A DNA stretch of 64,000 bases from Bacteroidota bacterium (GTDB taxonomy: Bacteria > Bacteroidota > Ignavibacteria > UBA10030 > SZUA-254), in assembly GCA_033854175.1 (NCBI GenBank), contig JAWOKN010000056.1, forward strand, positions 3,736-67,735. The letters are read 5' to 3'. The position numbers and the translations under genes are program-made. This document shows, piece by piece, positions 2,890 to 58,629 of this stretch (position 1 is the first letter of the stretch; the number at the start of each line of letters is the position of its first letter). The notes under the pieces are model-generated. The model had not been told where the DNA came from, did no database searches, and was given only the letters and a program-made list of their open reading frames with translations.

Positions 2890-3453
2890 GAACATCTCTT
2901 GATGAAATATTGCGATATTCGGCTATTGCGAGAGGCAGGTCGTGAATGAATACCAAATCATCCGCTCTCCGTGATCCTCCCCGGAAACGATTCCCCTAAT
3001 CCACCGAGCGGTGACATAAGTCACCCGGGAATTCCATGATCTTCCGGCAGGACCCTGACGATGTCGGAGTATCCGACCCTTCGGCCCGCCCGAGATGGAT
3101 GACACTGTTGTGCTCCCCCCACAGCCGCGTCATTCTTCCGGCGACCGGAACAAGAAATCAGACAAATGAGTATAGATCGAGTCGTAGCCGTATGATCCAA
3201 CACCCCGGTTTGCCGGCATGAAGAAAACGGGAAGATCTCTGAAGAACGGTGCACGGGGTGCGGCTCTTCACCCAAACAGGTCTCACACTTGAGAGATGTA
3301 GATCCCGATCCCCCCGGAAACCAATCGCACGGGGCAACAGAATATGGTGCGCAATTTGCTCGAACATATGCCGACAGAACCGCGTCCAGATCGGTCGCGG
3401 GTGCGGTCGAAATACCTCATAACATTGCGACCGGAGAGAGAAGGAGTGCGAGT

Positions 3454-5205
3454 ATGGACAAGAATACATATTTTCGCGGAGGCGCCTGTTTTTTTCTGTT
3501 ACCCATTGTTTTCATCCTTTCCCCAACCCACCTACGAGCCCAATCAGCGCTGCCATGCTACGCATGCCACAGCGGGGAGAACGACAACTGGCTGCTCGGC
3601 CGGCATGCAAACACCCAGAAGGACGTCGCAGGCGAGATCGCTGCTAACTGGCAGGGGCAGACGCCAGATTCCGTCATCCACGGCTCGGCTGCGGAGAACT
3701 GTGTAGCATGTCATTCCCCGCTTGCCGTCACGACAAACGGCGGGATGACCGAAACGCAGGTGATGGGACATTACTTCACCACGACCGGCGGTTTCTACAC
3801 TGATTCCACGCAGGCCGCGGATACGGCCAACTGGCCGCATGTCGGCTGCAACACCTGTCATGACGTTCCGTCGAACCATACGAGCCATGTGTTACCGACG
3901 CTTGCGATTTTCAATTCAACGACGGCACAATACGACTCGATGCCGACGACGGCCACGCTCTGCGGACAGTGTCACGGAACGCTGAGATTCGCGGAAACCG
4001 ACCATCGGATATTCGATGCGTGGAAACTCAGCCGGCACGGGCACAGGGGCCAATCGGACGTCGCGGGCGAGCTCGCCGGAAGCTGGGCGGGCAAAACACC
4101 CAATGACGTCATCAACGGGCCCGATGCGGAAAACTGCGTCGCCTGCCATGCTCCGACGGCGGTCGGTCAAAAATCCGGGGACACAACGGAGGTCATGGTC
4201 TTAAGCCGGTTCTTCACGACCTCGGGCGGGCAATTTACTGCAGGAACGGCCCCTTCCGACACGGCCCACTGGCCTGATGTCAGCTGCACCGCATGTCACG
4301 ACCCACATCGGCCGGACACACTTTCGTACTACAACACATCGACGAGGACGTACCAGGTCATGGCCTCATCAAACCAGTTATGCGGCCAATGCCACGGCAA
4401 CCTCAGGTTTGCCGGTACTGACCATTTAAGCTACAACGTGGAAGAAGCCATCGGTGGAGTCGGTGTGGCGGCCCAGGCGACCATGCCCGGCGCCGGGTGC
4501 ACGGATTGTCACATGCACAAGGGTGAAACGGACGGAACAAACTCACTCATGTACAAGGGGCACAGCTGGTCCATCTTCATCCACGAACCGGACAGCAGCA
4601 CAACCGCCTCCTGCACATCATGTCATGCGGGAATGAACGCCGATTCCTCCAAAACGGTCATCGCCGGCTGGAAGGCCGAATTTGCCTCGACGGACTCACT
4701 CGCCCAGTTACGGGTTGCCTCAGCAGACTCGGCGCTGCAGGGAATAACCGATTCCGTCAGGCAGGCATATCTTGCGGAAGCAAAGAGCAACCTGAGTCTT
4801 GCGGAATCGGACGAAAGCGGCGGATTCCACAACCACAAATACAGTATGGCGCTCCTGAACGACGCCATTGCGAAATCGGCACTCATCACCGGAGTAACGA
4901 TGCCGCAGGCGAATCTCCCGCTGCGGTTCGCGTTACATCAGAACTACCCGAATCCCTTCAATCCATCGACCATCATCCGGTATGAGATCCCCCTTGAAAG
5001 CAGAGTGGCCCTGAAGGTCTACAATGTTCTGGGACAGACCGTGGCAATACTGCGGGAGAACGTAGAATCAGCGGGGTACAAAATTGTAGAATGGACTGCG
5101 GCAGGCATGCCAAGCGGCATATACTTCTGTCAGCTCCAGGCAACGAGCACCTCGCATCCCGTCAAGGCCTACAGTCAGGTCATGAAGATGCTTCTTATTA
5201 GATAA
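3454..5205 (+). CDS. Secreted nonaheme c-type cytochrome with T9SS C-terminal sorting domain
   Basis: The ORF is 3289..5205. The best start is ATG 3454, preceded by GAGAGAGAAGGAG, giving the signal peptide MDKNTYFRGGACFFLLPIVFILSPTHLRAQS. There are nine CxxCH motifs: CYACH, CVACH, CNTCH, CGQCH, CVACH, CTACH, CGQCH, CTDCH, CTSCH. The C-terminus reads NYPNPFNPSTIIRYEIP...GIYFCQLQA...MLLIR. Confidence 0.85.
   Translation: MDKNTYFRGGACFFLLPIVFILSPTHLRAQSALPCYACHSGENDNWLLGRHANTQKDVAGEIAANWQGQTPDSVIHGSAAENCVACHSPLAVTTNGGMTETQVMGHYFTTTGGFYTDSTQAADTANWPHVGCNTCHDVPSNHTSHVLPTLAIFNSTTAQYDSMPTTATLCGQCHGTLRFAETDHRIFDAWKLSRHGHRGQSDVAGELAGSWAGKTPNDVINGPDAENCVACHAPTAVGQKSGDTTEVMVLSRFFTTSGGQFTAGTAPSDTAHWPDVSCTACHDPHRPDTLSYYNTSTRTYQVMASSNQLCGQCHGNLRFAGTDHLSYNVEEAIGGVGVAAQATMPGAGCTDCHMHKGETDGTNSLMYKGHSWSIFIHEPDSSTTASCTSCHAGMNADSSKTVIAGWKAEFASTDSLAQLRVASADSALQGITDSVRQAYLAEAKSNLSLAESDESGGFHNHKYSMALLNDAIAKSALITGVTMPQANLPLRFALHQNYPNPFNPSTIIRYEIPLESRVALKVYNVLGQTVAILRENVESAGYKIVEWTAAGMPSGIYFCQLQATSTSHPVKAYSQVMKMLLIR
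3583..4428 (+). repeat. Internal tandem duplication (two ~140-aa triheme units) inside the cytochrome gene
   Basis: The two units align: DNWLLGRHANTQKDVAGEIAANWQGQTPDSVIHGSAAENCVACH... against DAWKLSRHGHRGQSDVAGELAGSWAGKTPNDVINGPDAENCVACH... Each unit carries CVACH, C(N/T)(T/A)CH and CGQCHG(T/N)LRFA(E/G)TDH. Confidence 0.8.
4921..5202 (+). other. T9SS (Por) C-terminal sorting domain of the cytochrome
   Basis: The sequence LRFALHQNYPNPFNPSTIIRYEIPLESRVALKVYNVLGQTVAILRE...SGIYFCQLQA...MKMLLIR matches the pattern of the Por secretion C-terminal domain. Confidence 0.8.
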
Positions 5206-5493: not shown

Positions 5494-7386
5494 TTACATC
5501 ACAAAATGAGACACAACGCCGCCGACAAAAAAGGCCACGACCCAGGTACCGATCCAGATCACCATCCCCTCCCTCCAGCCCCTCTCTTTGAGCATCACCA
5601 TCAGTGAAGCGATGCACGGGACAAAGAGGGTAATGACGATAAGCGAAACGGCAATCTGCATCGGGTTGAGGGACATATGGTACAGACCGGCCGCGCCGAA
5701 ATCTCGGCGGACGACGCCCATAATAAATGCGACAGCGGCCTCCGGGGGCAGCTGGAGCCAGTGGACGACCAGGGGGGTAAGTTCGTGCTCGAGAAGATCC
5801 AGCAAACCGGTAAGCTGTGCGATACCGACCGCGAGTGCGCCCACAAAAAACCAGCCCGAGGCCTCCTTCATGAAATAATATGTCCGGACGGCGGTTTTCC
5901 TGAAGACATTTTCCATACGGGGCAATCTCATCGGCGGGAGATCCAGAAGAAGCGGGGCTGACGAGCCCGGCAGGACCCGGTCGAGCATCGTTCCGATAAG
6001 GACCAGAACGGCAAGGATCACCAGGACATAGACAGCGATCGGGCCCGGGCCCGCACCCGCAAGGAGCGCGGCGATGACGGCCATCTGGGCGGAGCAGGGG
6101 ATGACAAACTGAAGAATTGCGGTGGCAATCGTCTTCTCGCGTTCAGAGCCGAGGAGGCGTGTAGTAATCGTTGCGGAGGTCACGCAGCCGAAGCCGAGAA
6201 TCAGCGGAATGACGGCCCTTCCGTTCAGGCCGAGGTAGGTCAGAATGCGGTCCACCATCGTCGCCAGCCGCGGAAGGTACCCGCTATCCTCCATCAGAGA
6301 AAGAACGATATAGAACGAAATCACGAGCGGAAGCAGAAGAAAAAGAAGATACGTTGTGGTCATGGTCACAACGCCGTAAGGACCGACAAGGAGTGTATAC
6401 CACCATGATGAGGGAGAAATCAGGGTGGCGGTGATCGTGCGGATCCACGGTTCCCAGAGATTGTTACCGATCCGCTGCTCGGTAAAATTCACAACCAGCT
6501 GGGAAACAAACTTTCCGATAAAGAGATAGGCGACATACAATGCGGCGACAAGGATAGGGATCCCCGTGGAGGGCTTCAGGGCCCAGCGGCCGAGCCTGTC
6601 GGAAAACCGTCTTTTCGGGGAAGTATCCTGCATGACCTGGTTCACGAGATAATTCACCCGGTTGCGGCGGCTGATATAAATCTCATCGCGGAGCGTGCCG
6701 GGATTGACGCCGTGGCGCCGGGCGACAAACTGGTCCCCCTCGAGGACCAGCAGGGCCTCGGATTGTGAGCCGACCATGGAAAGGGTCTCATGGAGGTGGC
6801 CGTGGAGTTCCTCGCGCTGGGTCCCCTCGCGGGCGCCCAGGATGGCCTGATCGAGTTTTTCCAGCGTGACGCCGTTCACGGCGGTAACGGGAATGACACT
6901 GACGCCCAAAAAATTCGAAAGCTTCGGAATGTCGATACTGATATGAAAATCCCTCACCTCGTCCATAAAATTCAGCAGCACCGTAATCTTCTTCCCCATA
7001 TCGATCAGCTGCTGGGTCAGAAACAGGTCCCGTTCGAGGTGTGTCGCATCGACAACATTCAGAACAATATCCGCGTCGAGGATGATATCGCGGGCGGCTT
7101 TCTCCTCATCATTAAACGACGAGACCCCATAGATGCCGGGTGTATCGAAGACATCATAATCGCGGTAGGAACCGCAGACAAGTTCGACGGTAGTCCCCGG
7201 ATAATTCGAGACATCGACATTCATACCGGAAAGGGTATTAAAAATGATCGATTTCCCGACATTGGGATTGCCGGCAAGGACAATTTCCACGCGTCCGGTC
7301 TGTTTGCGGGGGGATCTCAGGCCGGGATGCTGGTGTCTATCCGAATGTTCCAGCGGGGGGCGGGATAAAGGATCATCTGGTGTCAT
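5494..7386 (-). CDS. feoB: Ferrous iron transport protein B
   Basis: N-terminal G-domain (GNPNVGKS, DVSNYPGTTVE, DTPG) followed by a long polytopic membrane domain. It overlaps feoA by 14 nt. Confidence 0.95.
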   Translation of the reverse strand: MTPDDPLSRPPLEHSDRHQHPGLRSPRKQTGRVEIVLAGNPNVGKSIIFNTLSGMNVDVSNYPGTTVELVCGSYRDYDVFDTPGIYGVSSFNDEEKAARDIILDADIVLNVVDATHLERDLFLTQQLIDMGKKITVLLNFMDEVRDFHISIDIPKLSNFLGVSVIPVTAVNGVTLEKLDQAILGAREGTQREELHGHLHETLSMVGSQSEALLVLEGDQFVARRHGVNPGTLRDEIYISRRNRVNYLVNQVMQDTSPKRRFSDRLGRWALKPSTGIPILVAALYVAYLFIGKFVSQLVVNFTEQRIGNNLWEPWIRTITATLISPSSWWYTLLVGPYGVVTMTTTYLLFLLLPLVISFYIVLSLMEDSGYLPRLATMVDRILTYLGLNGRAVIPLILGFGCVTSATITTRLLGSEREKTIATAILQFVIPCSAQMAVIAALLAGAGPGPIAVYVLVILAVLVLIGTMLDRVLPGSSAPLLLDLPPMRLPRMENVFRKTAVRTYYFMKEASGWFFVGALAVGIAQLTGLLDLLEHELTPLVVHWLQLPPEAAVAFIMGVVRRDFGAAGLYHMSLNPMQIAVSLIVITLFVPCIASLMVMLKERGWREGMVIWIGTWVVAFFVGGVVSHFVM

Positions 7387-7609
7387 GGGGAACTTCGTCG
7401 ATGACCGTCACGAGAATACTCCGTGCAAGTGTGTGGCCGATAGCGATCTGCTGTCGGTTTTTCTGGAGAACGATGGTTCCGCCCGGGAGGCGTTCCAGGC
7501 ATTTGACGCGCTGCCCTTCATGGATCCCCAGCCGGACGAACTGGGGGTAATAATCGCCGCCGGGGACCGAATGAATCTTCAACAATTGACCGACCTTGGT
7601 TTCGCTCAT
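7373..7609 (-). CDS. feoA: Ferrous iron transport protein A (FeoA domain)
   Basis: MSETKVGQLLKIHSVPGG...RLGIHEGQRVKCLERLPGGTIVLQKNRQQIAIGHTLARSILV is a FeoA SH3-like domain. The ORF-track start (GTG 7678) coincides with the predicted sigma54 transcription start, so ATG 7609 is preferred. ATG 7645 and 7672 are alternatives. Confidence 0.8.
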   Translation of the reverse strand: MSETKVGQLLKIHSVPGGDYYPQFVRLGIHEGQRVKCLERLPGGTIVLQKNRQQIAIGHTLARSILVTVIDEVPHDTR

Positions 7610-7686
7610 AGAGACGGGTTTCTTGCGGCTCTTCTTGTCAGTCATGATATCATATCGATTAAATTCAAACATACTCACCTATTATC

Positions 7687-7702
7687 GGCAATTATTGTGC
7701 CA
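7687..7702 (-). promoter_or_regulatory. Sigma54-type promoter (-24 TGGCAC / -12 TTGCC) upstream of feoAB
   Basis: The minus strand reads TGGCAC-AATAA-TTGCC, with correct GG-N10-GC spacing. It is oriented toward feoA, with a predicted TSS near 7676. Confidence 0.6.
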
Positions 7703-7703
7703 C

Positions 7704-7727
7704 AAATCGGATAAATCTATCCAATAT
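7704..7727. promoter_or_regulatory. Palindromic operator (10-4-10) abutting the feo sigma54 promoter
   Basis: The minus strand reads ATATTGGATA-GATT-TATCCGATTT, followed by one nt and then TGGCAC. It is near-identical to the perfect palindrome at 45232-45255. Confidence 0.55.
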
Positions 7728-7810
7728 TTCAGATAAGGATTCCGCAAATCCGCAGACGGGGGAGGGAATGCCTATCATCTTTGATAAAACGAAAATCACA
7801 CGGAAACCGA

Positions 7811-9139
7811 TCAGAGTAAAGAGAGTGCTTTCTGAAGATCATAAATGATATCCTCGGGATCCTCGAGGCCGATGGAAAGGCGCAGACCGCCCGGATCGAG
7901 TCCCCTTTCGAGCTGTTCGTCGAGCGGGAAAGCCGAATGCGTCATCGAGCTCGGATGTTCGACCAGAGTTCTGATCTGGCCGAGGCTGACTGCAAGGGTA
8001 ATCGTATAGGCATTATGGGCGAGGGCATTAATAAACCTTTCGCCCTGGTCGTGCCGTTCCTTCGGTGTAGAACCGTGGAGGACAAAATAGAGGAGTGTGC
8101 CGGGGGAGAAATTCCCCTTATAGTCGCGCATCTGTTTCCGGGCAAGTTTAAACTGCGGAAACGAGGGTAATCCGGGATACCGGACGAAGGCGACGCGGGG
8201 CTCCTTCCGCAGGAATTCAGCCACCCGGTAGGTGCTCTCGATCTGCTGGCGGATACGGGTTGAAAGACTCGGGAGGCCATAGACCAGTATAGGCCAGGCG
8301 CTCTTAGCTGACAGTGTGCCGCCGAAATCCTTCCGGTAAAGGAGGAGCCGGTCATAGGACCAGCGGGGACCGACAACGACGCCCCCCATATCGGTGCCGA
8401 AACCGCAGATCCCCTTTGTAAGAGAATCGACGACAAAATCGGCACCCAATGTCAGGGGACGCTGGCAGAAGGGGGTGGCGAAGGTATTATCGATGACCAG
8501 ATAGATCTTCCTTTCGGGGGATCTCCGGCGGTTCGCGCGGCGGATAATGCCGGCAATCGCGCCGATATCGATAAGATCCAGAGTCGGGTTCACGGGGGAC
8601 TCAAAATAGACGACGCGGGTGCGGTCGGTGATCTTCCGTTCAAGGTTTGCGGGTTTTCTCAGATCGACATAGGCCGTAGTGATCGTATACCGCGGGTACC
8701 AGTTAAGGAGAAGCGAATAGGTACAGCCGTACAAAACGGGGTGGGCGATAATTTCATCGGCGGTGCCGGTAAGTGTGCCGAGGACGGCCGAGATGGCTGC
8801 CATACCGGTCGCAAAAGTCACGGCCACCTCGCCCTGTTCGGCGTCGGCGAGGTTTTCCTCGAGGATCTCCTTATTCGGTTCGCCGAGGCGGTCATAGATA
8901 TAGATCGGGGCGCACGATGCAATCTTTCTGATTCCGTCGTGGTGGGCGAACTCTGCGAACCCCTGAGCGCCGCGCCGGGCGGTATCGAGGCGGAACGTCG
9001 AGGAGGAGGAAAGGGGCGGGACGACATGGTGGTTATAGTCCCACTTCTTGCTCGAGGCCTTTCCATAAATAAGGCGCGTCTGCATTGAATACGGGCGCGC
9101 CTGATGTTTTTTACCTTTCTTCGGGCGTAAGGATTTCAT
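7811..9139 (-). CDS. Cys/Met-metabolism PLP-dependent enzyme (methionine gamma-lyase / cystathionine gamma-synthase / O-acylhomoserine sulfhydrylase family)
   Basis: Family motifs are present: FESPVNPTL, VVDSLTKGICGFGTDMGG (S-x-T-K PLP lysine) and RLSIGLEDPEDII. An ATGA start/stop overlap links it to the upstream gene. Confidence 0.85.
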   Translation of the reverse strand: MKSLRPKKGKKHQARPYSMQTRLIYGKASSKKWDYNHHVVPPLSSSSTFRLDTARRGAQGFAEFAHHDGIRKIASCAPIYIYDRLGEPNKEILEENLADAEQGEVAVTFATGMAAISAVLGTLTGTADEIIAHPVLYGCTYSLLLNWYPRYTITTAYVDLRKPANLERKITDRTRVVYFESPVNPTLDLIDIGAIAGIIRRANRRRSPERKIYLVIDNTFATPFCQRPLTLGADFVVDSLTKGICGFGTDMGGVVVGPRWSYDRLLLYRKDFGGTLSAKSAWPILVYGLPSLSTRIRQQIESTYRVAEFLRKEPRVAFVRYPGLPSFPQFKLARKQMRDYKGNFSPGTLLYFVLHGSTPKERHDQGERFINALAHNAYTITLAVSLGQIRTLVEHPSSMTHSAFPLDEQLERGLDPGGLRLSIGLEDPEDIIYDLQKALSLL

Positions 9140-10125
9140 TTTTTCGTCTCATGTTGTTCCGGAACGGGATCTGACAGAAGCAGTTCCCTGACCGTAGGGC
9201 AGGAGAGAACCTCCGATCGGAGTTTGGCCAGAACCTCCGAGTTATACCAGATCTCCCTGAAATTATAATTATTCTCGCGGAGTTCGCCGCACGGGGTGCC
9301 GAGTGAGGCGCAGGGCTGGACCGAGCCTGTAGGCGAGATGAAGATAAAGCTCCTTCCGGCGAGGCACCAGTGGGTCCACTCGACGCGGACCTTATGATTC
9401 TCCTGTTCCCCGTTTCCCTCACCCGGTGCCGCAACATCATGGAGGCCGTATTTGATGCACTGGGGAGAAAAATACATCCCCTTCGGGCTCAGGCGTTTAA
9501 TCTGGGCGATCTTCGATATGAACTGGCCGATAAACTGGTCGGTATCGGCGTCCTGATCCTTCTCCGGAAGGAGGGCGGCGTCCCACGCCAGGTGGCAGTA
9601 GAGACCGTTTGCGGACTTCTGGAGTGCAAAGTCATGTTCAAAGGCCAGCTGGCGGGTATCGGGCTTATGGATACTGCTCCCGAGGTGGATTTCGTAGCCC
9701 GCCTTCTTGAGCCGCCGGATGCTGTTTTCCAGCGCCTGAAACTGCGTCGATTGCTTGAAACGGGTATCCATATCCTCGGTGATCGCGCCATCCAGGAGAA
9801 GGCGGAAAACCTTGGGGCCGAAGATGACATACTTCTCGATCATTTCGTCGGTCAGCTCCTGGGGTGCGACCTCGATAATCATCTTCAGGCCGAGGGCGAA
9901 CCCGTATTCGACAATCTGAAAAAGATCGGGGCGTTCGGCGACCTTTCTGCCGGTGAGGACGATAATCGGTTTTGCGATGCGGGCGATGCTGTCGATGATC
10001 AGGAGGCATTCATGGGTAGTAAGGACATCGGGCTCTCCGGGTGTTTTTTTCCTTGAAAGCTGCCAGACGATCATCCTGGGGAAAAAATCCTCTTCTTCGC
10101 GGTGGCTGTGTGCTGGACCCTGCAT
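9136..10125 (-). CDS. Radical-SAM/SPASM-like protein lacking the CX3CX2C cluster motif (probable pseudoenzyme or non-radical homologue)
   Basis: It has a TIM-barrel-like core (IIVLTGRKVAERPDLFQIVEYGFALGLKMIIE...RLLLDGAI...ENSIRRLKKAGYEIHLGSSI). The C-terminus is SPASM/twitch-like (CLAGRSFIFISPTGSVQPCASLGTPCGELRENNYNFREIWYNSEVLAKLR...C). The N-terminus MIVWQLSRKKTPGEPDVLTTHE has no cysteine where CxxxCxxC belongs, and GGEP is replaced by TGRK. Confidence 0.6.
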   Translation of the reverse strand: MQGPAHSHREEEDFFPRMIVWQLSRKKTPGEPDVLTTHECLLIIDSIARIAKPIIVLTGRKVAERPDLFQIVEYGFALGLKMIIEVAPQELTDEMIEKYVIFGPKVFRLLLDGAITEDMDTRFKQSTQFQALENSIRRLKKAGYEIHLGSSIHKPDTRQLAFEHDFALQKSANGLYCHLAWDAALLPEKDQDADTDQFIGQFISKIAQIKRLSPKGMYFSPQCIKYGLHDVAAPGEGNGEQENHKVRVEWTHWCLAGRSFIFISPTGSVQPCASLGTPCGELRENNYNFREIWYNSEVLAKLRSEVLSCPTVRELLLSDPVPEQHETKK

Positions 10126-10146: not shown

Positions 10147-10533
10147 TTATGATGAACGTGATCTGGAACGGCGTGAAGCATGATGAACCGCTTCGATAGT
10201 TTCGACGACAAGGGGAAAATAGCGTTCGAGGGCGCACTCCTCGTCCTCGCGCAGCTGGCAATGCCCCGAGGCGGACTGGAACGTGCATTCGGTGCAGACG
10301 ATCATATGCAGTTCGCGGAGATACCTCTCCATCGAATCCGCCTGCAGGTTTCCGACGATCTGGACGATGCGGGGAAGCTGGGTCTGGAGGGGGCAGTCGA
10401 ACTCGGCATCCAGCCGGCAGTTCCCGTGCCCGTCGCCGTCGAGGCAGACCCTGCAGACCTTCTCGCGGACGGCCTGCCAGTAGGCGTGTGCATCCTGGCG
10501 GGGGCGTTTTTCAGACCGCAATTTTCTTGCCAT
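10147..10533 (-). CDS. Cys-rich protein, paralogue B (two C-x2-C-x8-C-x7-C modules)
   Basis: VCRVCLDGDGHGNCRLDAEFDCPLQTQLPRIVQIV ... VCTECTFQSASGHCQLREDEECALERYFPLVVETIEAV. It is a paralogue of 10511..10852 and overlaps it by 23 nt. Confidence 0.6.
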   Translation of the reverse strand: MARKLRSEKRPRQDAHAYWQAVREKVCRVCLDGDGHGNCRLDAEFDCPLQTQLPRIVQIVGNLQADSMERYLRELHMIVCTECTFQSASGHCQLREDEECALERYFPLVVETIEAVHHASRRSRSRSS

Positions 10534-36087: not shown

Positions 36088-36252
36088 CCCGCCGCGAACA
36101 GGCTGGACGGGGGTACCGCTCACCCGGGGGTGTACAGGGGTGGGCGGTAGTTATTCGGGGTGGGGGTGATCCGGTAAAACCACCTTTAACCATTTTGTGA
36201 TAAAATCCCCGAATTCATTTCAAATCTGATAACTCCGGGGGAAAAGACGGGC

Positions 36253-36278
36253 CGGAGAGAAGCCAAATCTCCGTTTTT
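36253..36278 (+). terminator. Rho-independent terminator of the four-gene operon
   Basis: CGGAGA-gaagccaaa-TCTCCG followed by T5. Confidence 0.6.
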
Positions 36279-36301
36279 CAGTATCATCTCAACCCCCTTT
36301 A

Positions 36302-36317
36302 TGGCACGAGAATTGAC
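36302..36317 (+). promoter_or_regulatory. Sigma54-like element (TGGCACG-N4-TTGAC) just upstream of the sensor kinase gene
   Basis: The -24 half (TGGCACG) is perfect, and this is the only promoter-like element in the 54 nt between the terminator and ATG 36333. The -12 is TTGA, and the predicted TSS (~36328) leaves only a ~5-nt leader, so it is doubtful. Confidence 0.3.
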
Positions 36318-36332
36318 GATAACGGAAATGGT

Positions 36333-37982
36333 ATGAAGGCATTCCGTTCGCTCAGTGTGAGGGTATTTGCGGGGTCATTTCTCCTCCTTGTGACCCTCCT
36401 GGGGCTCTATTCCTATTTTGCGATAAAGTTTCACACCGAACAGATGATGGAGATCGTCCTGGGAAACGCAAGCCGCATCAGCGACATCATCAAGAACTCG
36501 ACCCACTACAGCATGCTCCTCAACAGGAAGGAGGACGTCTACCAGACGATCCTCACCATCGGCAAGGAAAAGGGGGTTGAAGGGATACGGATTTACAACA
36601 AGCGGGGAGAAATCATGGCCTCCTCCCGCACCGAAGAAAAACTGCAGATTGTCGACATGCATGCTGAAGCCTGTTACGTCTGCCATGAGAAGGGAAAACC
36701 CCTGGAATCGCTCGCATCGGACAACAGGATGCGGATCTACACCTCCCCGAAGGGGTACAGGGTACTGGGTTTGATCAACCCCATCCACAACGAGCCAAGC
36801 TGTTCGAATGCCGATTGCCATGCTCATCCGCCTGATAAAACCATACTCGGTGTACTCGACGTTCGGATGTCGCTGGAAAACGTCGACACGGCAATCGCCG
36901 AAGCGCACGCCAAGATGATCAGCTGGGCGGTCGGGGGAGTTCTCCTTGCATCGCTCCTCATCTCGGTCCTCCTCTACAGAACCGTGCATCGGCCCGTCAA
37001 GCGGCTCACGCTGGGGACGCATGAAGTCTCCTCCGGCAACCTCGATCTCCGGATACCCATACACTCGAAGGACGAACTGGGGCAGCTTGCCGAATCGTTC
37101 AATTCGATGACGACCTCATTGCGCAACCTCATTGAAGAGAAAAACACCTGGTCGCGCGAGCTGGAGGAGCGGGTCCGTGAAAAAACCGCCGAGTTGAAGC
37201 ACATTCACGAGCAGATCCTGCAGATTGAAAAGATGACATCGCTCGGGAAGCTCGCGGCGACCGTTGCGCACGAACTGAACAACCCCCTGGAAGGGATCCT
37301 GACCTACGCGAAGCTCCTGGCGAAGCAGCTCAGGAAAGCCGAATTCTCTGCGGACCGGTCAAAGGAATTTCTCGAGGAACTCAATCTCATCATCCAGGAA
37401 ACGGACCGGTGCGGAACGATCGTGAAGAACCTCCTCCTCTTTTCCCGGAAGCAGGTCGGCGAATTCGCGCTTGCGCCTGCGCGGCAGATCGTGGAGAAGG
37501 CCCAGCGTCTCGTGGATCACCACTTCCACATCTCCAACGTGAAATTCGAGGCCACGTACGCGCCTGAGGACGTGTCGCTCATGTGCGACGAAATGCAGAT
37601 CCAGCAGGCCTTGATTGCGCTCTTTGTCAACGCGGTTGAAGCCATGCCGGGGGGCGGCACACTGCGCGTCGATGTCTCGCAGCGTTCGAAGGATGACAAC
37701 ATCATCCTCCGCATTTCGGACACCGGTACGGGGATAGCGGAGGAGGATCTCCACAACATCTTCGAACCATTTTTCACAACAAAAAAGGAGGGTCAGGGTG
37801 TCGGCCTCGGCCTCTCGGTTGTCTACGGCATCGTCGTCCGTCACGGCGGCACGATCAGTGTGGAGTCGAGTCTCAACAAGGGAACGGCATTCACGCTGAC
37901 CTTCCCGGCGCTTGAGCGGAGCACCAAGGGAATCCCGGAGCCGGAGGCGAAAAAATCACCCATTGATCCACACTATGCATAA
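36333..37982 (+). CDS. Sensor histidine kinase with periplasmic domain carrying two heme-c-type motifs
   Basis: Two TM helices flank a ~165-aa periplasmic domain with CYVCH (aa 114-118) and CSNADCH (aa 157-163). It also has a HAMP domain, an H-box (VAHELNNPLEG) and an HATPase domain (NAVEAM, DTGTGI, GVGLGLS). Confidence 0.9.
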   Translation: MKAFRSLSVRVFAGSFLLLVTLLGLYSYFAIKFHTEQMMEIVLGNASRISDIIKNSTHYSMLLNRKEDVYQTILTIGKEKGVEGIRIYNKRGEIMASSRTEEKLQIVDMHAEACYVCHEKGKPLESLASDNRMRIYTSPKGYRVLGLINPIHNEPSCSNADCHAHPPDKTILGVLDVRMSLENVDTAIAEAHAKMISWAVGGVLLASLLISVLLYRTVHRPVKRLTLGTHEVSSGNLDLRIPIHSKDELGQLAESFNSMTTSLRNLIEEKNTWSRELEERVREKTAELKHIHEQILQIEKMTSLGKLAATVAHELNNPLEGILTYAKLLAKQLRKAEFSADRSKEFLEELNLIIQETDRCGTIVKNLLLFSRKQVGEFALAPARQIVEKAQRLVDHHFHISNVKFEATYAPEDVSLMCDEMQIQQALIALFVNAVEAMPGGGTLRVDVSQRSKDDNIILRISDTGTGIAEEDLHNIFEPFFTTKKEGQGVGLGLSVVYGIVVRHGGTISVESSLNKGTAFTLTFPALERSTKGIPEPEAKKSPIDPHYA

Positions 37983-37997
37983 CCTCACAGAAAACGT

Positions 37998-39344
37998 ATG
38001 AACAACGATATATCCATACTCATTGTCGACGATGAAAAGGTCGTCCGCGAATCCCTCTCGAAGTGGTTCAAGGAAGACGACTTCATCGTGGGCGCATCAG
38101 AAAACGCGGCTGAAGCCCTGAAACAGCTCCAGGTGCGGAAATGGGACATCATTCTCCTCGACATCAAAATGCCGGGGATGGACGGGATGGAGTTACAGCA
38201 GCGAATCCGGGAGATCGACCCCGGAGCGACGATCATCTTCATCACGGCGCACGCCTCGGTCGACACGGCGGTCCAGGCCCTGAAGGCGGGGGCGTTCGAT
38301 TACATCGCGAAGCCGATCGACCCCGACTACCTGTCGCATCTGATCCAGAACGCCATCAAGCAGCGGATCCTGACGGGAGAAAACATCCGTCTGAAGGAGC
38401 AGATCACCGAATTCGCGAAAGTCGATGAGATCATCGGCGACTCCCCGCAGATGAAGAAGGTCTTCGAACTGATCGAAACGGTGGCAAAGACCGACACGAC
38501 GGTCATGATCCGGGGCGAAAGCGGAACGGGGAAGGAGCTCATCGCGCGGGCGATTCACGGCAACAGCGAACGGCGGTATTTTCCCATCGTCGCCATCAAC
38601 TGCGGGGCATTGCCGGAGGGAATACTGGAAAGCGAACTCTTCGGTCATGAGCGGGGTGCGTTTACCGGGGCGCAGTACAGGAGAAAGGGAAAAATCGAGC
38701 TGGCCGACGGCGGCACATTATTTCTTGACGAGGTCGGCAACATCGGGATGAAGACCCAGATGGACCTCCTCCGTGTAATCGAGACAAAGCAATTTTCGCG
38801 TGTCGGGGGAAACGAGCTGATCAAGGTGGACTTCAGGACCATCTGCGCGACAAACAGGGATCTCGAGAAGGCCGTTCAGGAGGGCACCTTCCGTGAAGAC
38901 CTCTATTACCGTCTCAACGTCTTCTCCGTCCTCGTCCCCCCCTTGCGCGAGCGGAAGTCGGACATCCCCCTGCTGGCAAATTACTTTTTGAAAAAATACT
39001 CGCGATCGATGGGGAAGCCGATCGTGACCATCTCCTCGGACGCGATGGATCTGATGGTCAAATACAACTGGCCCGGGAACATCCGCGAGCTGGAAAACGC
39101 GATAGAGCGGGCGATGGTGGTCGGAAAGCCCCCCTGCATCAAGGCGGTGGATCTGCCGATACAGTTCTCCGATCTCATTGCGGCACCTTCGCTCGGATCT
39201 CTGGCATCGATGGAAAAAAGCCACATCGCCGAGATCCTCCGGATGAACAACTGGAACATCTCCCGGTCCGCGGAAGTCCTGCAGATCGACCGGGTCACTC
39301 TCTACAACAAGATCGAAAAATATGGCCTGAAAAAGCCGCAGTGA
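37998..39344 (+). CDS. Sigma54-dependent response regulator (NtrC/AtoC family enhancer-binding protein)
   Basis: Receiver domain (ILIVDDE...ILLDIKMPGMDG), AAA+ domain (GESGTGKE, ERGAFTGA, GTLFLDEV) and a C-terminal Fis-type HTH (RSAEVLQIDRVTLYNKIEKYGL). Confidence 0.95.
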   Translation: MNNDISILIVDDEKVVRESLSKWFKEDDFIVGASENAAEALKQLQVRKWDIILLDIKMPGMDGMELQQRIREIDPGATIIFITAHASVDTAVQALKAGAFDYIAKPIDPDYLSHLIQNAIKQRILTGENIRLKEQITEFAKVDEIIGDSPQMKKVFELIETVAKTDTTVMIRGESGTGKELIARAIHGNSERRYFPIVAINCGALPEGILESELFGHERGAFTGAQYRRKGKIELADGGTLFLDEVGNIGMKTQMDLLRVIETKQFSRVGGNELIKVDFRTICATNRDLEKAVQEGTFREDLYYRLNVFSVLVPPLRERKSDIPLLANYFLKKYSRSMGKPIVTISSDAMDLMVKYNWPGNIRELENAIERAMVVGKPPCIKAVDLPIQFSDLIAAPSLGSLASMEKSHIAEILRMNNWNISRSAEVLQIDRVTLYNKIEKYGLKKPQ

Positions 39345-44772: not shown

Positions 44773-45228
44773 ATGAGCATATTTTTTAGCCGTCAATGCG
44801 AGTACGCCCTTCAGGCGGTCATGTACATCGCCCTCAAACCGGAGAACGAGATGAGTTCGATCCGCGAGCTGTCGCGGACGCTCGGCATCCCGTATCATTT
44901 CCTTGCAAAAATCCTCCAGGACCTCACGCGGAAAGGATTGCTGACATCCCTGAAAGGTTCCACCGGCGGGTACATGCTTGCGATGCCGAAGGAAACCATC
45001 ACACCGTTCCACATCGTCGATGCCATTGACGGATCAAGTTTTCTGAACAATTGTCTCCTCGGTTTTTCATCCTGCTCAAGCGAAAAACCGTGCGCGTTGC
45101 ATTCCCAATGGGAGGGTATGCGGGAGAAACTCAATACCATGCTGAAATCGACCAACATCTATGAGGCGGCGCTCAGCATGAAGAAACCGCAATATCTCCA
45201 TAATCAACCCGGGCCAAGCACCACCTGA
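44773..45228 (+). CDS. Rrf2-family transcriptional regulator with three-Cys putative Fe-S ligand set
   Basis: Its wHTH region is FSRQCEYALQAVMYIALKPENEMSSIRELSRTLGIPYHFLAKILQDLTRKGLLTSLKGSTGGY. The Cys spacing is NNCLLGFSSCSSEKPCALH (C-x6-C-x5-C), like IscR/NsrR-type cluster ligands. Confidence 0.9.
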   Translation: MSIFFSRQCEYALQAVMYIALKPENEMSSIRELSRTLGIPYHFLAKILQDLTRKGLLTSLKGSTGGYMLAMPKETITPFHIVDAIDGSSFLNNCLLGFSSCSSEKPCALHSQWEGMREKLNTMLKSTNIYEAALSMKKPQYLHNQPGPSTT

Positions 45229-45231
45229 TGA

Positions 45232-45255
45232 ATATCGGATAAATCTATCCGATAT
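45232..45255. promoter_or_regulatory. Perfect 10-4-10 palindromic operator
   Basis: ATATCGGATA-AATC-TATCCGATAT starts 4 nt after the rrf2 stop and directly abuts the -24 element at 45256. A second, slightly imperfect copy lies at 7704-7727. Confidence 0.6.
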
Positions 45256-45271
45256 TGGCACAGATGTTGCA
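45256..45271 (+). promoter_or_regulatory. Consensus sigma54 promoter (TGGCAC-N5-TTGCA)
   Basis: TGGCAC-AGATG-TTGCA matches the -24/-12 consensus fully. It is oriented toward the NapH-like gene, with a predicted TSS ~45282. Confidence 0.7.
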
Positions 45272-45522
45272 CTACTAGAGCTGAAGAAATACAAAGGCCG
45301 GTTCTTCCCTCTGTATTAGAGACCTTTTTGATCATCAGAAGAATCCCTTTTTTAAGAATGAGAAATCAGCAGTTTACGGCTATAAGAAGTGACACCGTGC
45401 CCCCTCCTTCCGCTGCATTTGCCGTTGCACCGCAAAATGGACTATCCCCGTATAAAGCCGAAGGCGCCAGGTCCGGGCGTCTGAGTATAAAAAAGCTCTC
45501 ACCCGCGCTCCGCAAACCGAAA

Positions 45523-46578
45523 ATGGGTTACCGGAACGAAACAGGCATACGCCGAATCCTCCTGAGGCTCAGGGAAGATTCACAGTTCCTCCGTTCGGTC
45601 ATACAGACAGCGTTCCTGCTGCTTTGCATCTGGATCGGGATAGAGTTCTATTTATTCGTGAAATGGGGTGCCTCGGGAGGTGTGGAGGCCTATCATATGC
45701 GGCCTCCCGGTGTGGAAGGATTTCTGCCGATCAGCGCTCTGATCAGCCTGAAATATTTCCTGCAGACCGGCATCATCAACAGCGTCCATCCCTCGGGATT
45801 ATTCATCTTCGCAGCGATTCTGGTAATAGGATTTTTCTTTAAAAAAGCCTTCTGCAGCTGGCTCTGTCCGATCGGCACAATAAGTGAATCCCTCTGGACC
45901 TTCGGCCGGAAACTCTTCGGGAAAAATATCGTCCTACCCCGATGGCTCGATTATCCGCTCCGTTCCATCAAATACCTGCTCCTGTTGTTTTTTGCCTACA
46001 TCATCTGGAGCATGAGCATCGATGGCCTCCAGTTTTTCATACAAAGCCCGTACAACCAGGTAGCAGACGTCAAGATGTACTACTTTTTCGCACGGATCAG
46101 CACCTTTGCCCTCTGGACCATCATCATCCTTGCGATCCTGTCGGTCTTCATCAAAAACTTCTGGTGCCGGTATCTCTGTCCCTACGGAGCGCTCCTGGGC
46201 ATCACCGGATTATTCAGTCCGTTAAAGATCACGCGGAATACGACAACATGCATCGACTGCGAACTCTGCACGAAAGTCTGTCCGGCCAGCATCAGGGTCC
46301 ACGCGCTGAAGAAGGTGAGAAGTGATGAATGCATGAGCTGTCTTGAATGCGTGCAGATCTGTCCGGTAAAAAACACACTTGAAGTTCAGCCCCCCGCGGG
46401 GAACGCGAAAGTCCCCGGATGGATCTTCGGGCTTCTCGTCGCCGGGGTATTCGTCGGGATCACCGGTCTTGCGATGCTCGCCGGGCACTGGCAGAATTCA
46501 ATCACAAAGGCAGAATACCTGAACCACTTCCGGAACATCGAATCCCACGTCTATTCCCATGAAGACGCGATCCGATAA
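45523..46578 (+). CDS. NapH/YccM-type membrane polyferredoxin (4Fe-4S binding protein)
   Basis: Membrane CxxxCP motifs (FCSWLCPIG, WCRYLCPYG) plus two ferredoxin motifs (CIDCELCTKVCP, CMSCLECVQICP). ATG 45523 gives ~25 aa before the first TM helix. The ORF-track TTG 45328 would add a low-complexity extension, so the start is uncertain. Confidence 0.75.
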   Translation: MGYRNETGIRRILLRLREDSQFLRSVIQTAFLLLCIWIGIEFYLFVKWGASGGVEAYHMRPPGVEGFLPISALISLKYFLQTGIINSVHPSGLFIFAAILVIGFFFKKAFCSWLCPIGTISESLWTFGRKLFGKNIVLPRWLDYPLRSIKYLLLLFFAYIIWSMSIDGLQFFIQSPYNQVADVKMYYFFARISTFALWTIIILAILSVFIKNFWCRYLCPYGALLGITGLFSPLKITRNTTTCIDCELCTKVCPASIRVHALKKVRSDECMSCLECVQICPVKNTLEVQPPAGNAKVPGWIFGLLVAGVFVGITGLAMLAGHWQNSITKAEYLNHFRNIESHVYSHEDAIR

Positions 46579-47365
46579 ATCTCTCCGGGCGTTTTACGAC
46601 ACTCTGGCGCCGGACTACGACCTGATGACGGCATTCAACGATCGCGTCGCGAGAGAGGAGGAATTCTTCCGTTTCCTTGCAAAAAAATATCACATTCGCA
46701 CCGCAATCGATGCAGGCTGCGGGACGGGAGTTCACTCGATACTTCTTGCCAGGCTGGGCGTGAAGGTCACTGCTGTGGACATATCGCGGAAAATGATCAC
46801 GGCGACGAGAGCCAATGCACAAAAATTTCACCTCCCGATAAGAGGAGTAGAATCGTCATTCGGTGAAATGGCAAAAAAATTGGATACCGTCGCCGACGCC
46901 CTCTTTTGCATGGGAAATTCCCTGGCGCACATGCTGACGGAGGAGGAATTACTCGACAGCCTGGCAAATTTCCGTGCACTCCTCAGGCCGAAGGGACTTT
47001 TGGTACTCCAGCTGGGAAATTACGACCGAATACTCAAAGAGAGGGCACGTCTGCAGCATGTGAGGGATTCCGGAGGAAAAAGCTTCGTGCGATCGTACTG
47101 CTACCTTCAATCTTTAATATCCTTCAGTATAGATATCAAGACTTCAGCCAGGGGGAGAACATTGAAGAACATCAGAATAAAGCTGAACCCAATCCGCAGC
47201 GGATATCTTCAAAGGCTCCTCATCCGGTCAGGATTCACAGTGATGGCAGAATACGGAAGCCTGCAAAAGGAGCCATTTTCGAAGGGTAGGTCGCGCGATG
47301 TAATCATCCTGGCCAAAAAGGCATACATGCGAATCTTTTCCTCATTTCCTGCATCATATAGATGA
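46559..47365 (+). CDS. Class I SAM-dependent methyltransferase
   Basis: AIDAGCGTGVHSILLARLGVKVTAVDISRKMI (motif I plus the acidic residue). It overlaps the upstream gene by 20 nt. Confidence 0.85.
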   Translation: MKTRSDKSLRAFYDTLAPDYDLMTAFNDRVAREEEFFRFLAKKYHIRTAIDAGCGTGVHSILLARLGVKVTAVDISRKMITATRANAQKFHLPIRGVESSFGEMAKKLDTVADALFCMGNSLAHMLTEEELLDSLANFRALLRPKGLLVLQLGNYDRILKERARLQHVRDSGGKSFVRSYCYLQSLISFSIDIKTSARGRTLKNIRIKLNPIRSGYLQRLLIRSGFTVMAEYGSLQKEPFSKGRSRDVIILAKKAYMRIFSSFPASYR

Positions 47366-56381: not shown

Positions 56382-58472
56382 TTATTTCACGAGCAGCATT
56401 GTTTCTGTCTTCGTATACTCTCCCGCCTGCAAGCGGTAGAAATAAGGTCCACTCGGCAACTCCGCGGCACTGAATGTTCTCGCATAGACCCCGGCCGCCA
56501 ACCTCTCCCTGTCGATCATCGTCCCCACCAGCTGACCCAGCAGATTAAACACCTTCAACGTAACGACCGATTGTTTCGGAAGGCCAAACGCAATTGTGGT
56601 TGATGGGTTAAAGGGATTGGGATAATTTCGCGACAGATAAAATCGCGCTGGCAGGGGATCGTGGGCGGGTTCAATCCCCGTCATCATCTCCGACAATGGA
56701 CGTCTCCACACCCCGCTCGTCACCGTTCCTGCGAAAAGGTTTCCATTATTCACAGCAAAAGCATAAACCGTCGTATTCGGCATTCCCAGATTGACCTGGG
56801 TCCAGTACACCCCGTCGTTCGTCGAAAGAAAAATCCCGCTGTCACTTCCCGCAAAGATATTCAACACGCCCCCTCCCTGAATCGTCAAGAGCGACCTTAT
56901 GTTGAAATTTGTCAGGCCTGAATCGGCAGGAACCCAGCTCCCACCGTTATTCGTTGAACAAAAAACCCCCCCGCCCAGTGTGCCGGCAAAAAGGCGTGTT
57001 TCGGTACCGGCAAGAGCGCGCACGTCCAGATTCGACAGATTTGAACTGACATCGGTCCAGCTCGTTCCATTATTTGTGGAGAGGAAAACGCCACCGCCGG
57101 ATGTCCCTGTAAACAAATTTGTCCCCCCGCCCCCGTCGGGGACAACGGCAAACGAGCGTATTATGGAATTCGTCAGGCCAGAATCGGCCGCACTCCAGCT
57201 CGTTCCATTATTCGTCGAGAGAAACACGCCGCCTCCGGAGCTACCCGCAAAGACAGTGCCACCGCTCACAGCGAGGGAACTGAAGAGGGGATAGATCAGG
57301 CCCGAATCAACAGGGATCCATTCCGTCCCATTATTGGTGGAGAGAAAAACCCCGCTGCGCGCTGCGGCAAAGAGATTCGTACCGCTCGACGCAAGGGCGG
57401 AGATATACACGTCGTACAGTCCGGAACTCGCCGGGGACCAGTTCAACCCGCCGTCGGTGGTGCGAAATACGCCGTTACCGGATGTTCCCGCGAAAACATT
57501 TATTCCATCGGAGGAAAGAGCCCTCACCGAGGTATTCGTCAGACCTGAGCTGGCAGAGCTCCAGCTTGTCCCATCATCCGTGGAAAGATAGACCCCACCG
57601 CCATACGTGCCGGCAAAAAGATTCGTTCCGTTGACGGCAATCGAATAGACCGAACCGTTGATCAAACCCGAATCCACCGACACCCAGTTTTTCCCGCTGT
57701 TTGTTGACCGGAAGACGCCAGTACCGCCGCCTGCGTACAACGCCGTCCCTTTTGAAGCAAGAGTTCTAACATACGGATTCCATAAATCTGAATCGGCGCG
57801 GGTCCAATTTTGACCGTTATTGGTGGAAACACATACACCGCCGCCCCAGGTACCGGCAAAAAGATATGAACCGCTGACGGTCAGGGTACCCACTTGGGAA
57901 TTTGTCAGTCCGGAGTTAACAGCAGTCCAGGCGGATCCGTTGTTCGTAGAACGAAAAACCCCATTGTTCATCGTCCCGGCAAATATGTTCACCCCGTTGA
58001 CACCGAGGGCAAGAATGGATGAATCGGTCAATCCTCCGCTCGCAGACGTCCAGGTAAGCCCATTATTGGTCGACCGGAAGACTCCGCTCCCGGATGTTCC
58101 CGCGAAGATACTCGTTCCATTCACAGCCAGGGACGATACAAACATGTTCCAGAGGCCGGAATTCCGTCCGGTCCATGTCGCCCCGTTATCCGTGGAAAGA
58201 AAAACACCGCCTCCGCGGGTACCCGCAAAGATATTCGTGCCGCTCAGGGCGAATGAATAGACATACATACTGCTCAGACCAGAGGGAGTCCACGTCGAGC
58301 CGGTATTTGTGGAATGAAAAATCCCGTTATCAGTCCCCGCGAAAAGATCTGCACCATTAACGGCTATGGCATACACATCGCCGCCAAAGGGACCGTTCGT
58401 CTGCACCCATTGAGCTTCAAGCTGATTCACCACAAAAGAGAATAAACACAGAAATGATACCATTCGCAGCAT
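56382..58472 (-). CDS. Secreted 13-repeat BNR/Asp-box-like beta-propeller protein with T9SS C-terminal sorting domain
   Basis: ATG 58472 is preceded by AAGGAGGG and gives the signal peptide MLRMVSFLCLFSFVVNQLEAQ. There are thirteen units of the type GVF-x-STNNG-x-x-W-x(6)-GL-x(10)-G-x-x-(L/I)FAGT. The C-terminus reads NYPNPFNPSTTIAFGLP...GPYFYRLQAG...MLLVK. Confidence 0.85.
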   Translation of the reverse strand: MLRMVSFLCLFSFVVNQLEAQWVQTNGPFGGDVYAIAVNGADLFAGTDNGIFHSTNTGSTWTPSGLSSMYVYSFALSGTNIFAGTRGGGVFLSTDNGATWTGRNSGLWNMFVSSLAVNGTSIFAGTSGSGVFRSTNNGLTWTSASGGLTDSSILALGVNGVNIFAGTMNNGVFRSTNNGSAWTAVNSGLTNSQVGTLTVSGSYLFAGTWGGGVCVSTNNGQNWTRADSDLWNPYVRTLASKGTALYAGGGTGVFRSTNSGKNWVSVDSGLINGSVYSIAVNGTNLFAGTYGGGVYLSTDDGTSWSSASSGLTNTSVRALSSDGINVFAGTSGNGVFRTTDGGLNWSPASSGLYDVYISALASSGTNLFAAARSGVFLSTNNGTEWIPVDSGLIYPLFSSLAVSGGTVFAGSSGGGVFLSTNNGTSWSAADSGLTNSIIRSFAVVPDGGGGTNLFTGTSGGGVFLSTNNGTSWTDVSSNLSNLDVRALAGTETRLFAGTLGGGVFCSTNNGGSWVPADSGLTNFNIRSLLTIQGGGVLNIFAGSDSGIFLSTNDGVYWTQVNLGMPNTTVYAFAVNNGNLFAGTVTSGVWRRPLSEMMTGIEPAHDPLPARFYLSRNYPNPFNPSTTIAFGLPKQSVVTLKVFNLLGQLVGTMIDRERLAAGVYARTFSAAELPSGPYFYRLQAGEYTKTETMLLVK
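56385..56645 (-). other. T9SS C-terminal sorting domain of the repeat protein
   Basis: RFYLSRNYPNPFNPSTTIAFGLPKQSVVTLKVFNLLGQLVGTMID...SGPYFYRLQAGEYTKTETMLLVK. Confidence 0.8.
56690..58400 (-). repeat. Tandem coding repeats (~41-47 aa period, 13 copies)
   Basis: The motif S-T-(N/D)-(N/D/G)-G-x-x-W recurs 13 times at a regular spacing of roughly 125-140 nt. Confidence 0.8.
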
Positions 58473-58629
58473 AAACCCTCCTTGCACCATGCATTTGACC
58501 CATGAGATCGGAAATAAACAGTAACCCCTCTGCCCCCGGGAATTTACATCTGCAATCCACCATTATACTACGGGACGAACATGGAAGTTCCACGGATAGG
58601 AAAATATTTTTCACGCCCATGAAGCTTTG

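Follow-up and report, generated by a model that had tools for sequence, protein, structure and literature searches.

A predicted Rrf2 operator abutting a sigma-54-type promoter upstream of feoAB in an uncultivated Bacteroidota lineage

Textbook control of the ferrous-iron transporter genes feoAB is by Fur acting on sigma-70 promoters. The feoAB operon of a Bacteroidota bacterium (contig JAWOKN010000056.1) lies in a stretch of 64,000 nucleotides (nt) that was analysed whole and is called the window here. It is preceded by a palindrome (dyad) abutting a -24/-12 element of the sigma-54 type, and the same module stands a second time in the window, in front of an operon that starts with a NapH-like gene. 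This raises the question of what controls ferrous-iron uptake at such a locus. We consider it probable that the feoAB control region combines a sigma-54 promoter with an abutting operator for an iron-sulphur (Fe-S) regulator of the Rrf2 family, that Rrf2 carrying its cluster (holo-Rrf2) gates, that is represses, the promoter, and that an NtrC-type activator fires it.

The dyad and its -24/-12 partner

The minus strand from 7727 to 7687 reads ATATTGGATA-GATT-TATCCGATTT-G-TGGCAC-AATAA-TTGCC, in exact agreement with the initial annotation, and the plus strand from 45232 to 45271 reads ATATCGGATA-AATC-TATCCGATAT-TGGCAC-AGATG-TTGCA. Written on the plus strand, the two dyads (AAATCGGATAAATCTATCCAATAT and ATATCGGATAAATCTATCCGATAT) share 22 of 24 bases, the AATC spacer included, and each adjoins TGGCAC-N5-TTGC. 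This bears out the earlier proposal of one architecture copied at both loci. The promoters sit on opposite strands and are divergently oriented, and the dyad is flipped relative to them, as expected of a site for a symmetric dimer.

The predicted Rrf2 operator of feoAB is a dyad of 24 base pairs (bp) at 7704-7727 (unstranded), with its centre at about -38. The perfect -24/-12 element, TGGCAC-AATAA-TTGC, occupies 7688-7702 on the minus strand; with C7688 taken as -12, transcription is predicted to start at ~7676. Counted from the GG at -25/-24, the 20-bp core of the operator (7706-7725) runs from about -28/-30 to -47/-49. The other copy of the dyad (45232-45255, unstranded) begins 4 nt after the stop codon of an rrf2 gene. 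Its -24/-12 element (45256-45270, plus strand) serves an operon for NapH-like, methyltransferase, OsmC, rhodanese and DUF302 proteins.

Related loci were used to judge how far this arrangement departs from chance. The rrf2 set comprises 80 loci from species-representative genomes and one from the nearest relative (L001, Rrf2 87% identical), 81 loci from Ignavibacteria-like metagenome-assembled genomes (MAGs) in all, and a weight matrix for the dyad was built from 129 rrf2-adjoining sites. Over the 64 kb of the window this matrix returns two strong matches, 45234-45253 (score 19.9) and 7706-7725 (15.4), with the next best at 9.2. No third copy of the dyad was found in the window at up to three mismatches, and none is expected (100 shuffles). 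One resemblance, TCCGATAAATCTCTCCGG at 46571-46588 on the junction of the NapH-like and methyltransferase genes, has the GATAAATCT centre of the dyad; with three mismatches and a matrix score below 9, it is probably chance and is treated as such. The window contains three perfect matches to TGGCAC-N5-TTGC where 0.15 are expected, and none of 100 shuffles has as many. Two of them adjoin the dyads. The remaining one (57247-57261, minus strand) falls within the open reading frame (ORF) 56382-58490, which encodes a BNR/sortilin-like protein secreted by the type IX secretion system (T9SS); it could be an intragenic sigma-54 site or a chance match.

Composites were defined across the window and the 81 loci as a dyad scoring at least 11 that has TGGCAY-N5-TTGN (no change allowed in the GG) after it at an offset of 1-3 nt. 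By this definition 21 of 153 dyads are composites, the two in the window included, against 0.25 expected from the background rate. They precede the NapH-like gene (14 of 56 loci), a GltD-like Fe-S flavoprotein of about 633 residues (L037, L044, L052), a cytochrome c gene (L023) and feoA. The position of the 45232-45255 dyad is occupied in L001 and in 61 related loci, and L001 keeps the adjoining sigma-54 element as TGGCAT-AATAG-TTGC. In 42 NapH-like loci the dyad stands a few nucleotides before the start codon with no sigma-54 element. The two elements are separable, because each is found without the other: the dyad in these 42 loci, the sigma-54 element at a kinase operon of the window and before feoA in three relatives (L169, L171, L172). 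Mapped on a neighbour-joining tree of Rrf2 proteins, presence of the sigma-54 element in the promoter downstream of rrf2 requires at least eight gains or losses. The operator would therefore have persisted through repeated replacement of the promoter type, with the spacing constant. The juxtaposition appears to have arisen repeatedly in Ignavibacteria-like bacteria, with the same operator serving sigma-70-type promoters in sister lineages. In an Ignavibacterium album MAG (L017, 12353-12372) a dyad adjoins a weak -24/-12-like CGGCAC-N5-TTGT at the edge of the locus, which hints at a composite in a cultivable species.

A palindrome of this kind could instead function in RNA as a hairpin, terminating or stabilising transcripts at the 3' end of rrf2 or forming part of a leader, and the two copies do fold, at -14.1 and -11.5 kcal/mol (z-scores -3.9 and -2.4). 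We regard this as scarcely credible, and rejected it on the folding analysis together with the pattern of conservation: what relatives conserve is the identity of the half-site bases, with no co-variation. The dyad also occurs in both orientations relative to transcription, no U-run follows it, and its feo copy lies upstream of the predicted start and so outside that transcript. Scans of the window for Rfam families and tRNAs returned nothing.

The regulator that binds the dyad

Genomic neighbourhood points to the protein. Dyads scoring at least 13 number 140 in 895 kb, of which 122 fall within the rrf2-flanking 2% of that sequence (4.4 in block shuffles), a count that partly restates the training set, the matrix having been trained on rrf2-flanking sites. 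The matrix consensus is TTCAGACTAATTAGTCTGAA, with ATCGGATAAATCTATCCGAT as the variant of the window. Positions 1-4 and 17-20, which the seed had left free, are strongly conserved as sequence (TTC...GAA), beyond mere pairing. We take the lineage consensus ...AGACTAATTAGTCT... to resemble the GACT/AGTC half-sites of IscR type 1 operators, though the spacer is shorter by 1 bp. Operator variants CGGA and CAGA did not sort cleanly with clades of the Rrf2 protein.

Sites of this 20-bp dyad family flank rrf2 in the set. Of 63 dyads upstream of rrf2, 45 have TTGAC at a distance of exactly 27 nt before them; this spacing places the dyad over the -10 and start region, from -10 to about +12, of rrf2's own promoter (TTGACA-N17-TAAnnT). 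Such a position would be the classical layout for autorepression. The rrf2 gene of the window has no upstream dyad and is preceded by a DHO_dh-like gene. A second dyad, downstream of rrf2, stands ahead of the NapH-like gene in 56 loci. In 43 of 61 loci, with or without a sigma-54 element, a run of at least five T, often TTTTTTTG, ends 7-8 nt before the downstream dyad (loci L005-L078, directly after the rrf2 stop codon, at ~6440-6460 in most). Neither a sigma-70-type nor a Bacteroidetes-type promoter could be fitted to the T run and dyad in relatives lacking the sigma-54 element.

In comparative work, a site that recurs on the flanks of a regulator gene is usually taken to mark that regulator's operator. 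For this reason the dyad-binding factor is most likely the Rrf2-family protein of the window (44773-45228, plus strand; Pfam Rrf2, E = 1.5e-30). A single factor for both loci, as first suggested from the two copies of the dyad, is still the best reading, and the factor would now be the protein encoded beside the 45232 copy. The protein has the motif C94-x6-C101-x5-C107-x2-H110; these four residues are invariant in 32 homologues and are putative Fe-S ligands. Its homologues come from Bacteroidota/Ignavibacteria MAGs and its nearest relatives in the PDB are IscR chains (E ~1e-9).

The window Rrf2 belongs to no characterised Rrf2 equivalog. Among NCBIfam models only rrf2_super passes its cut-off. 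The scores for IscR are 71 bits against 207.55 (TIGR02010) and 50.5 against 275 (NF008110), for RirA 59.3 against 193 (NF008886), for NsrR 50.8 against 182 and for the SUF regulator 68.9 against 110.65; CymR is far under its cut-off. The neighbours of the gene are likewise not isc or suf genes; they are the DHO_dh-like gene and the gene for a NapH/MauN-like Fer4_5 protein, which starts at 45328 as the first gene after the 45232 module and is followed on the same plus strand by those for the methyltransferase, OsmC, rhodanese and DUF302 proteins.

A second Rrf2 paralogue, about 42% identical, occurs in three relatives (L018 8644-9090, L026 5855-6301, L168 280-744) and has its own type of operator, TGGAyAAnnAGGTCTAA, over its promoter. 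In L168 it sits after a TGGCAC-N5-TTGT element, upstream of feoAB. A different dyad, TTTAGACTCATTCTAAA, which this paralogue might recognise, is common to L171 (~2115-2135) and L172 (~2120-2140), about 40 nt before the sigma-54 promoter of feoA.

Some other protein might bind the dyad, either the NtrC-type activator at an enhancer unusually close to the promoter or an unrelated regulator, and the nearness of rrf2 would then reflect gene order. An activator gene is indeed linked to rrf2 in several loci, and a search of 18 composite promoters gave no shared upstream site for an activator (k-mers recur in at most four, mostly in coding sequence). We nevertheless judge it very unlikely. The dyad flanks rrf2 in some 60 loci, most of them without a linked activator gene, and at rrf2 it covers the -10 of a sigma-70 promoter, no sensible place for an enhancer. 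At the kinase/activator operon itself, the sigma-54 promoter has no dyad beside it. Enhancer-binding proteins normally bind ~100-150 bp upstream (PMC3037356).

The feoAB promoter in the window and in relatives

The feoA gene (7373-7645, minus strand; Pfam FeoA, E = 1.7e-10) encodes 90 residues when read from ATG 7645, and feoB (5494-7386, minus strand; Pfam FeoB_N, Gate and FeoB_C; 100% identical to P0121) overlaps its end, the two forming one operon. The longest feoA ORF opens at GTG 7678, and the predicted transcription start at ~7676 falls inside it. The initial annotation had proposed a start codon downstream of this ORF start, at ATG 7609. A downstream start stands, but the codon does not: that of 7609 is Leu or Pro in FeoA orthologues. 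ATG 7672 (MFEFN; MFELN in relatives) is common only to the two closest relatives. ATG 7645 is the best-supported start, because its Met is aligned in all eight FeoA sequences compared and the source assembly also calls a 90-residue feoA. With this start the feoAB leader would be about 31 nt, and the predicted transcription start no longer clashes with the ORF.

The Fur-regulated layout, a Fur box over a sigma-70 promoter upstream of feoA, is not what the window contains. No sigma-70-type promoter was matched in the metY-feoA region (7350-8000) and no Fur box, at up to three mismatches, in the whole window. A further protein might bind the inverted repeat GGATT-N5-AATCC at 7737-7751, which lies some 60-75 nt before the predicted start and was not observed in orthologous feo spacers.

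Ten orthologous feo loci (71-81% FeoB identity), individually collected, form a small sample in which the two halves of the module fare differently. Two loci have a dyad followed by TGGCAT-N5-TTGN upstream of feoA (L084, matrix score 16.9; L086, 18.1), and two keep the promoter with one half-site degraded (L083, 2.2; L085, 9.6). Three others (L169, L171, L172) have a good -24/-12 element and L168 a CGGCAC-N5-TTGC variant, none with the Rrf2 dyad. In L167 and L173 feoA is joined to the upstream gene, again with no dyad; in L167 the joined operon is preceded by a sigma-54 element. Thus comparison of orthologous loci, which the initial annotation had called for, upheld one half of the module: a sigma-54 element precedes feoA in seven of the ten loci, plus the variant, whereas the dyad is strong in two, degraded in two and absent from L167-L169 and L171-L173. 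Seven aligned promoters (the window, L083-L086 and L001 among them) agree throughout in the GA and TCC of the half-sites and in TGGCA and TTG, but differ in the N5 spacer. Two more distant genomes (L023, L058) have the dyad before feoA with no adjacent sigma-54 element. FeoB relatives at or below 66% identity, about 12 metagenome loci of at least 48% identity among the matches listed, have neither the dyad nor the sigma-54 element.

This distribution suggests that the sigma-54-type feoAB promoter is a lineage trait of fair breadth and that Rrf2 gating of feoAB would be an evolutionarily labile feature of a sub-lineage. The stable core of the regulon would be rrf2 with the NapH-like gene.

The same comparison bears on whether TGGCAC-N5-TTGC is a working promoter at all. 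Were it chance or an extension of the operator, feoAB would be transcribed from an unrecognised promoter or by read-through from metY, which feoA following its upstream gene directly in L167 and L173 might suggest; one of the three perfect matches lies within an ORF, and the predicted start falls in the longest feoA frame. We hold this to be highly improbable. Three matches are far more than the number expected by chance, GG and TTG are conserved across a variable spacer, and each element persists without the other, before feoA and in the 42 NapH-like loci respectively. The clash between start site and ORF disappears with the conserved start at 7645.

The genes preceding feoAB encode a Cys/Met pyridoxal-phosphate enzyme (metY, 7811-9139, minus strand) and a protein with a SPASM-domain match (9136-10125, minus strand). 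A sigma-54-like element with one mismatch, TGGCAAGAAAATTGC, lies upstream of these genes at 10518-10532 (minus strand), and a good TGGCAT-N5-TTGC precedes the same SPASM-metY-feoAB string in L167 (337-351). These genes, too, may be sigma-54 driven. On the other side, feoB is adjoined on the opposite strand by a gene for a multihaem cytochrome (3289-5205, plus strand) with MtrC/MtrF-like domains, several CXXCH families and a T9SS C-terminal sorting domain. This places a secreted or outer-surface cytochrome beside the ferrous-iron transporter, and T9SS sorting tails in proteins of the window fit Bacteroidota.

A model for control and its relation to known systems

A sigma-54 promoter requires an activator, and a candidate is encoded in the window. 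A histidine kinase (36333-37982, plus strand) is followed by an NtrC/AtoC-type sigma-54 activator (37998-39344, plus strand; Pfam Sigma54_activat, E = 9e-71, Response_reg and HTH_8, with NCBIfam matches). Orthologues of this regulator are linked to rrf2 in eight other loci (L001, L003, L004, L010, L027, L041, L060, L069), and it is most likely the activator of the gated promoters. A sigma-54-type element with no dyad, TGGCACGAGAATTGA (36302-36316, plus strand), stands 17 nt before the kinase gene. The same TGGCACGAGAATTGA is found unchanged in L001 (1514-1528) within an otherwise diverged spacer, and L027 (2412) and L041 (2419) have equivalents, which suggests that the two-component system is autoregulated through sigma-54. 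The kinase/activator operon of L001 also has a good dyad, ATCGGATAAAATTGTCCGCT (1370-1389), some 125 nt ahead of its sigma-54 element, with nothing comparable at 36090-36300 in the window.

From the conserved elements, their non-random association and their link to rrf2, all read from sequence, we infer binding, direction of control, signal and acting activator as follows. An Rrf2 dimer with an intact cluster would occupy the operator beside -24. Judged by geometry and by established knowledge of sigma-54 closed complexes, the bound dimer would extend to the base pairs adjoining TGG, the contact site of the RpoN box, and would block either binding of the sigma-54 holoenzyme (E-sigma54) or engagement of the AAA+ activator. 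When the cluster is lost or altered, through shortage of iron or Fe-S or through oxidative or nitrosative damage, Rrf2 would leave. The NtrC-type activator, likely the 37998-39344 protein, would then fire the promoter, and feoAB and the NapH-like/OsmC/rhodanese operon would be co-induced. We favour repression because it is the norm for holo-Rrf2 proteins, because the site at the rrf2 promoter is a repressing one and because the dyad lies just before the NapH-like start codon. Cluster-bound IscR, RsrR, NsrR and RirA bind DNA and repress (PMC11672702).

Several observations weigh against this scheme. The dyad keeps a fixed position 1-3 nt upstream of the element, never over -12 or +1. Simple occlusion does not need such a position, and the fixed spacing would fit a contact-dependent mechanism equally well. 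The feo dyad of the closest relative is degraded (L083) though its NapH-like dyad is strong (20.7). No activator site in common was found ahead of the 18 composite promoters, although one would be expected about 80-150 bp upstream. Iron-rich members of the regulon (NapH-like, GltD-like, cytochrome c and pyruvate:ferredoxin oxidoreductase) would be odd to co-induce under iron shortage; the signal may therefore be redox or cluster damage and not iron itself. As a stimulus, cluster damage or redox stress fits the putatively co-regulated OsmC, rhodanese and Fe-S proteins no less than iron shortage does.

The sign of control could be the opposite. Rrf2 at about -38 would then be a positive co-factor that recruits or stabilises E-sigma54, or that bends DNA, like integration host factor (IHF), for access by the activator. 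The spacing of 1-3 nt is constant in 21 composites ahead of unrelated genes, across repeated independent gains, and many composites have a non-consensus -12 (TTGA or TTGT) that might need help; the dyad-less element of the kinase operon also has TTGA, so a weak -12 is not peculiar to composites. There is precedent in that apo-IscR is able to activate transcription (PMC11672702) and that BosR, of the Fur family, acts positively with a footprint 'juxtaposed to and partially overlapping' the -24/-12 region of the sigma-54 rpoS promoter (PMC3037356), although the role of BosR is itself disputed, according to a passage of PMC11109971. The same type of operator nonetheless covers -10 to +12 of the sigma-70 promoter of rrf2, a repressing position, and in the 42 NapH-like loci it stands a few nucleotides before the start codon where no sigma-54 element exists. 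On balance a positive role seems doubtful.

Whichever the sign, the juxtaposition of 1-3 nt might reflect direct, geometry-dependent interplay between the Rrf2 dimer and the sigma-54 holoenzyme. This could be a 'lock' on the closed complex that blocks the AAA+ activator, or co-activation in the manner of BosR by recruitment of E-sigma54. We think such direct contact rather unlikely. Were it real, a cluster-sensing protein would be wired straight into sigma-54 initiation, and the interest of the system would rise accordingly.

Gating by holo-Rrf2 of an activator-dependent promoter, the mechanism that we favour, would mean that ferrous-iron uptake in this uncultivated Bacteroidota lineage depends both on an ATP-dependent sigma-54 activator, through which a two-component system probably acts, and on an Fe-S-sensing Rrf2. 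The design would resemble an AND gate, about 45 bp long with fixed spacing, and at the same regulated genes it and sigma-70-type promoters have replaced one another. The effect of a protein bound beside -24 on sigma-54 closed complexes could be studied here in a defined system. The module also gives a first sketch of the regulon (rrf2, the NapH-like operon, the GltD-like flavoprotein, cytochrome c and feoAB) for an Rrf2 subfamily with no characterised member. Fe-S Rrf2 regulators, sigma-54 promoters and iron-responsive control of feo are each already known. A limited literature search found no description of an Rrf2 operator at a sigma-54 promoter or of a sigma-54-type feoAB promoter.

In enterobacteria Fur (and Fnr/ArcA) act on feoABC, and the parallel is control of a ferrous-iron transporter according to iron status by a metal- or cluster-sensing repressor. 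There the promoters are of the sigma-70 type with Fur boxes, whereas the window promoter belongs to the -24/-12 class. Other modulators of sigma-54 promoters likewise supply a second input to an activator-dependent promoter, according to passages in PMC7057263 and PMC8528422: IHF and recruitment through the C-terminal domain of the RNA polymerase alpha subunit at Pu, and PspA, NifL and FleN. IHF differs in being architectural and sensing no signal, and the anti-activators PspA, NifL and FleN bind the activator protein and not DNA next to -24.

BosR at rpoS of Borrelia burgdorferi is a further parallel: the site of a metalloregulator that is not itself an enhancer-binding protein lies just upstream of -24/-12, the strongest BosR site being juxtaposed to these elements, and an NtrC-type activator is also needed (PMC3037356). 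BosR differs in family (Fur), in binding direct repeats at three sites, in acting positively and in serving a single promoter; here a module with fixed spacing recurs.

The window Rrf2 is most like the Fe-S Rrf2 regulators IscR, RirA, NsrR and RsrR, with which it shares a winged-helix protein, three Cys (and His) ligands, a palindromic operator of ~20-25 bp and autoregulation, the last as predicted from the lineage. RirA also controls iron-uptake systems, and the likeness here would be a functional parallel only. Unlike these proteins, the window Rrf2 is not encoded beside isc or suf and has a NapH-like Fe-S membrane protein as its constant partner, and its candidate operator abuts sigma-54 promoters.

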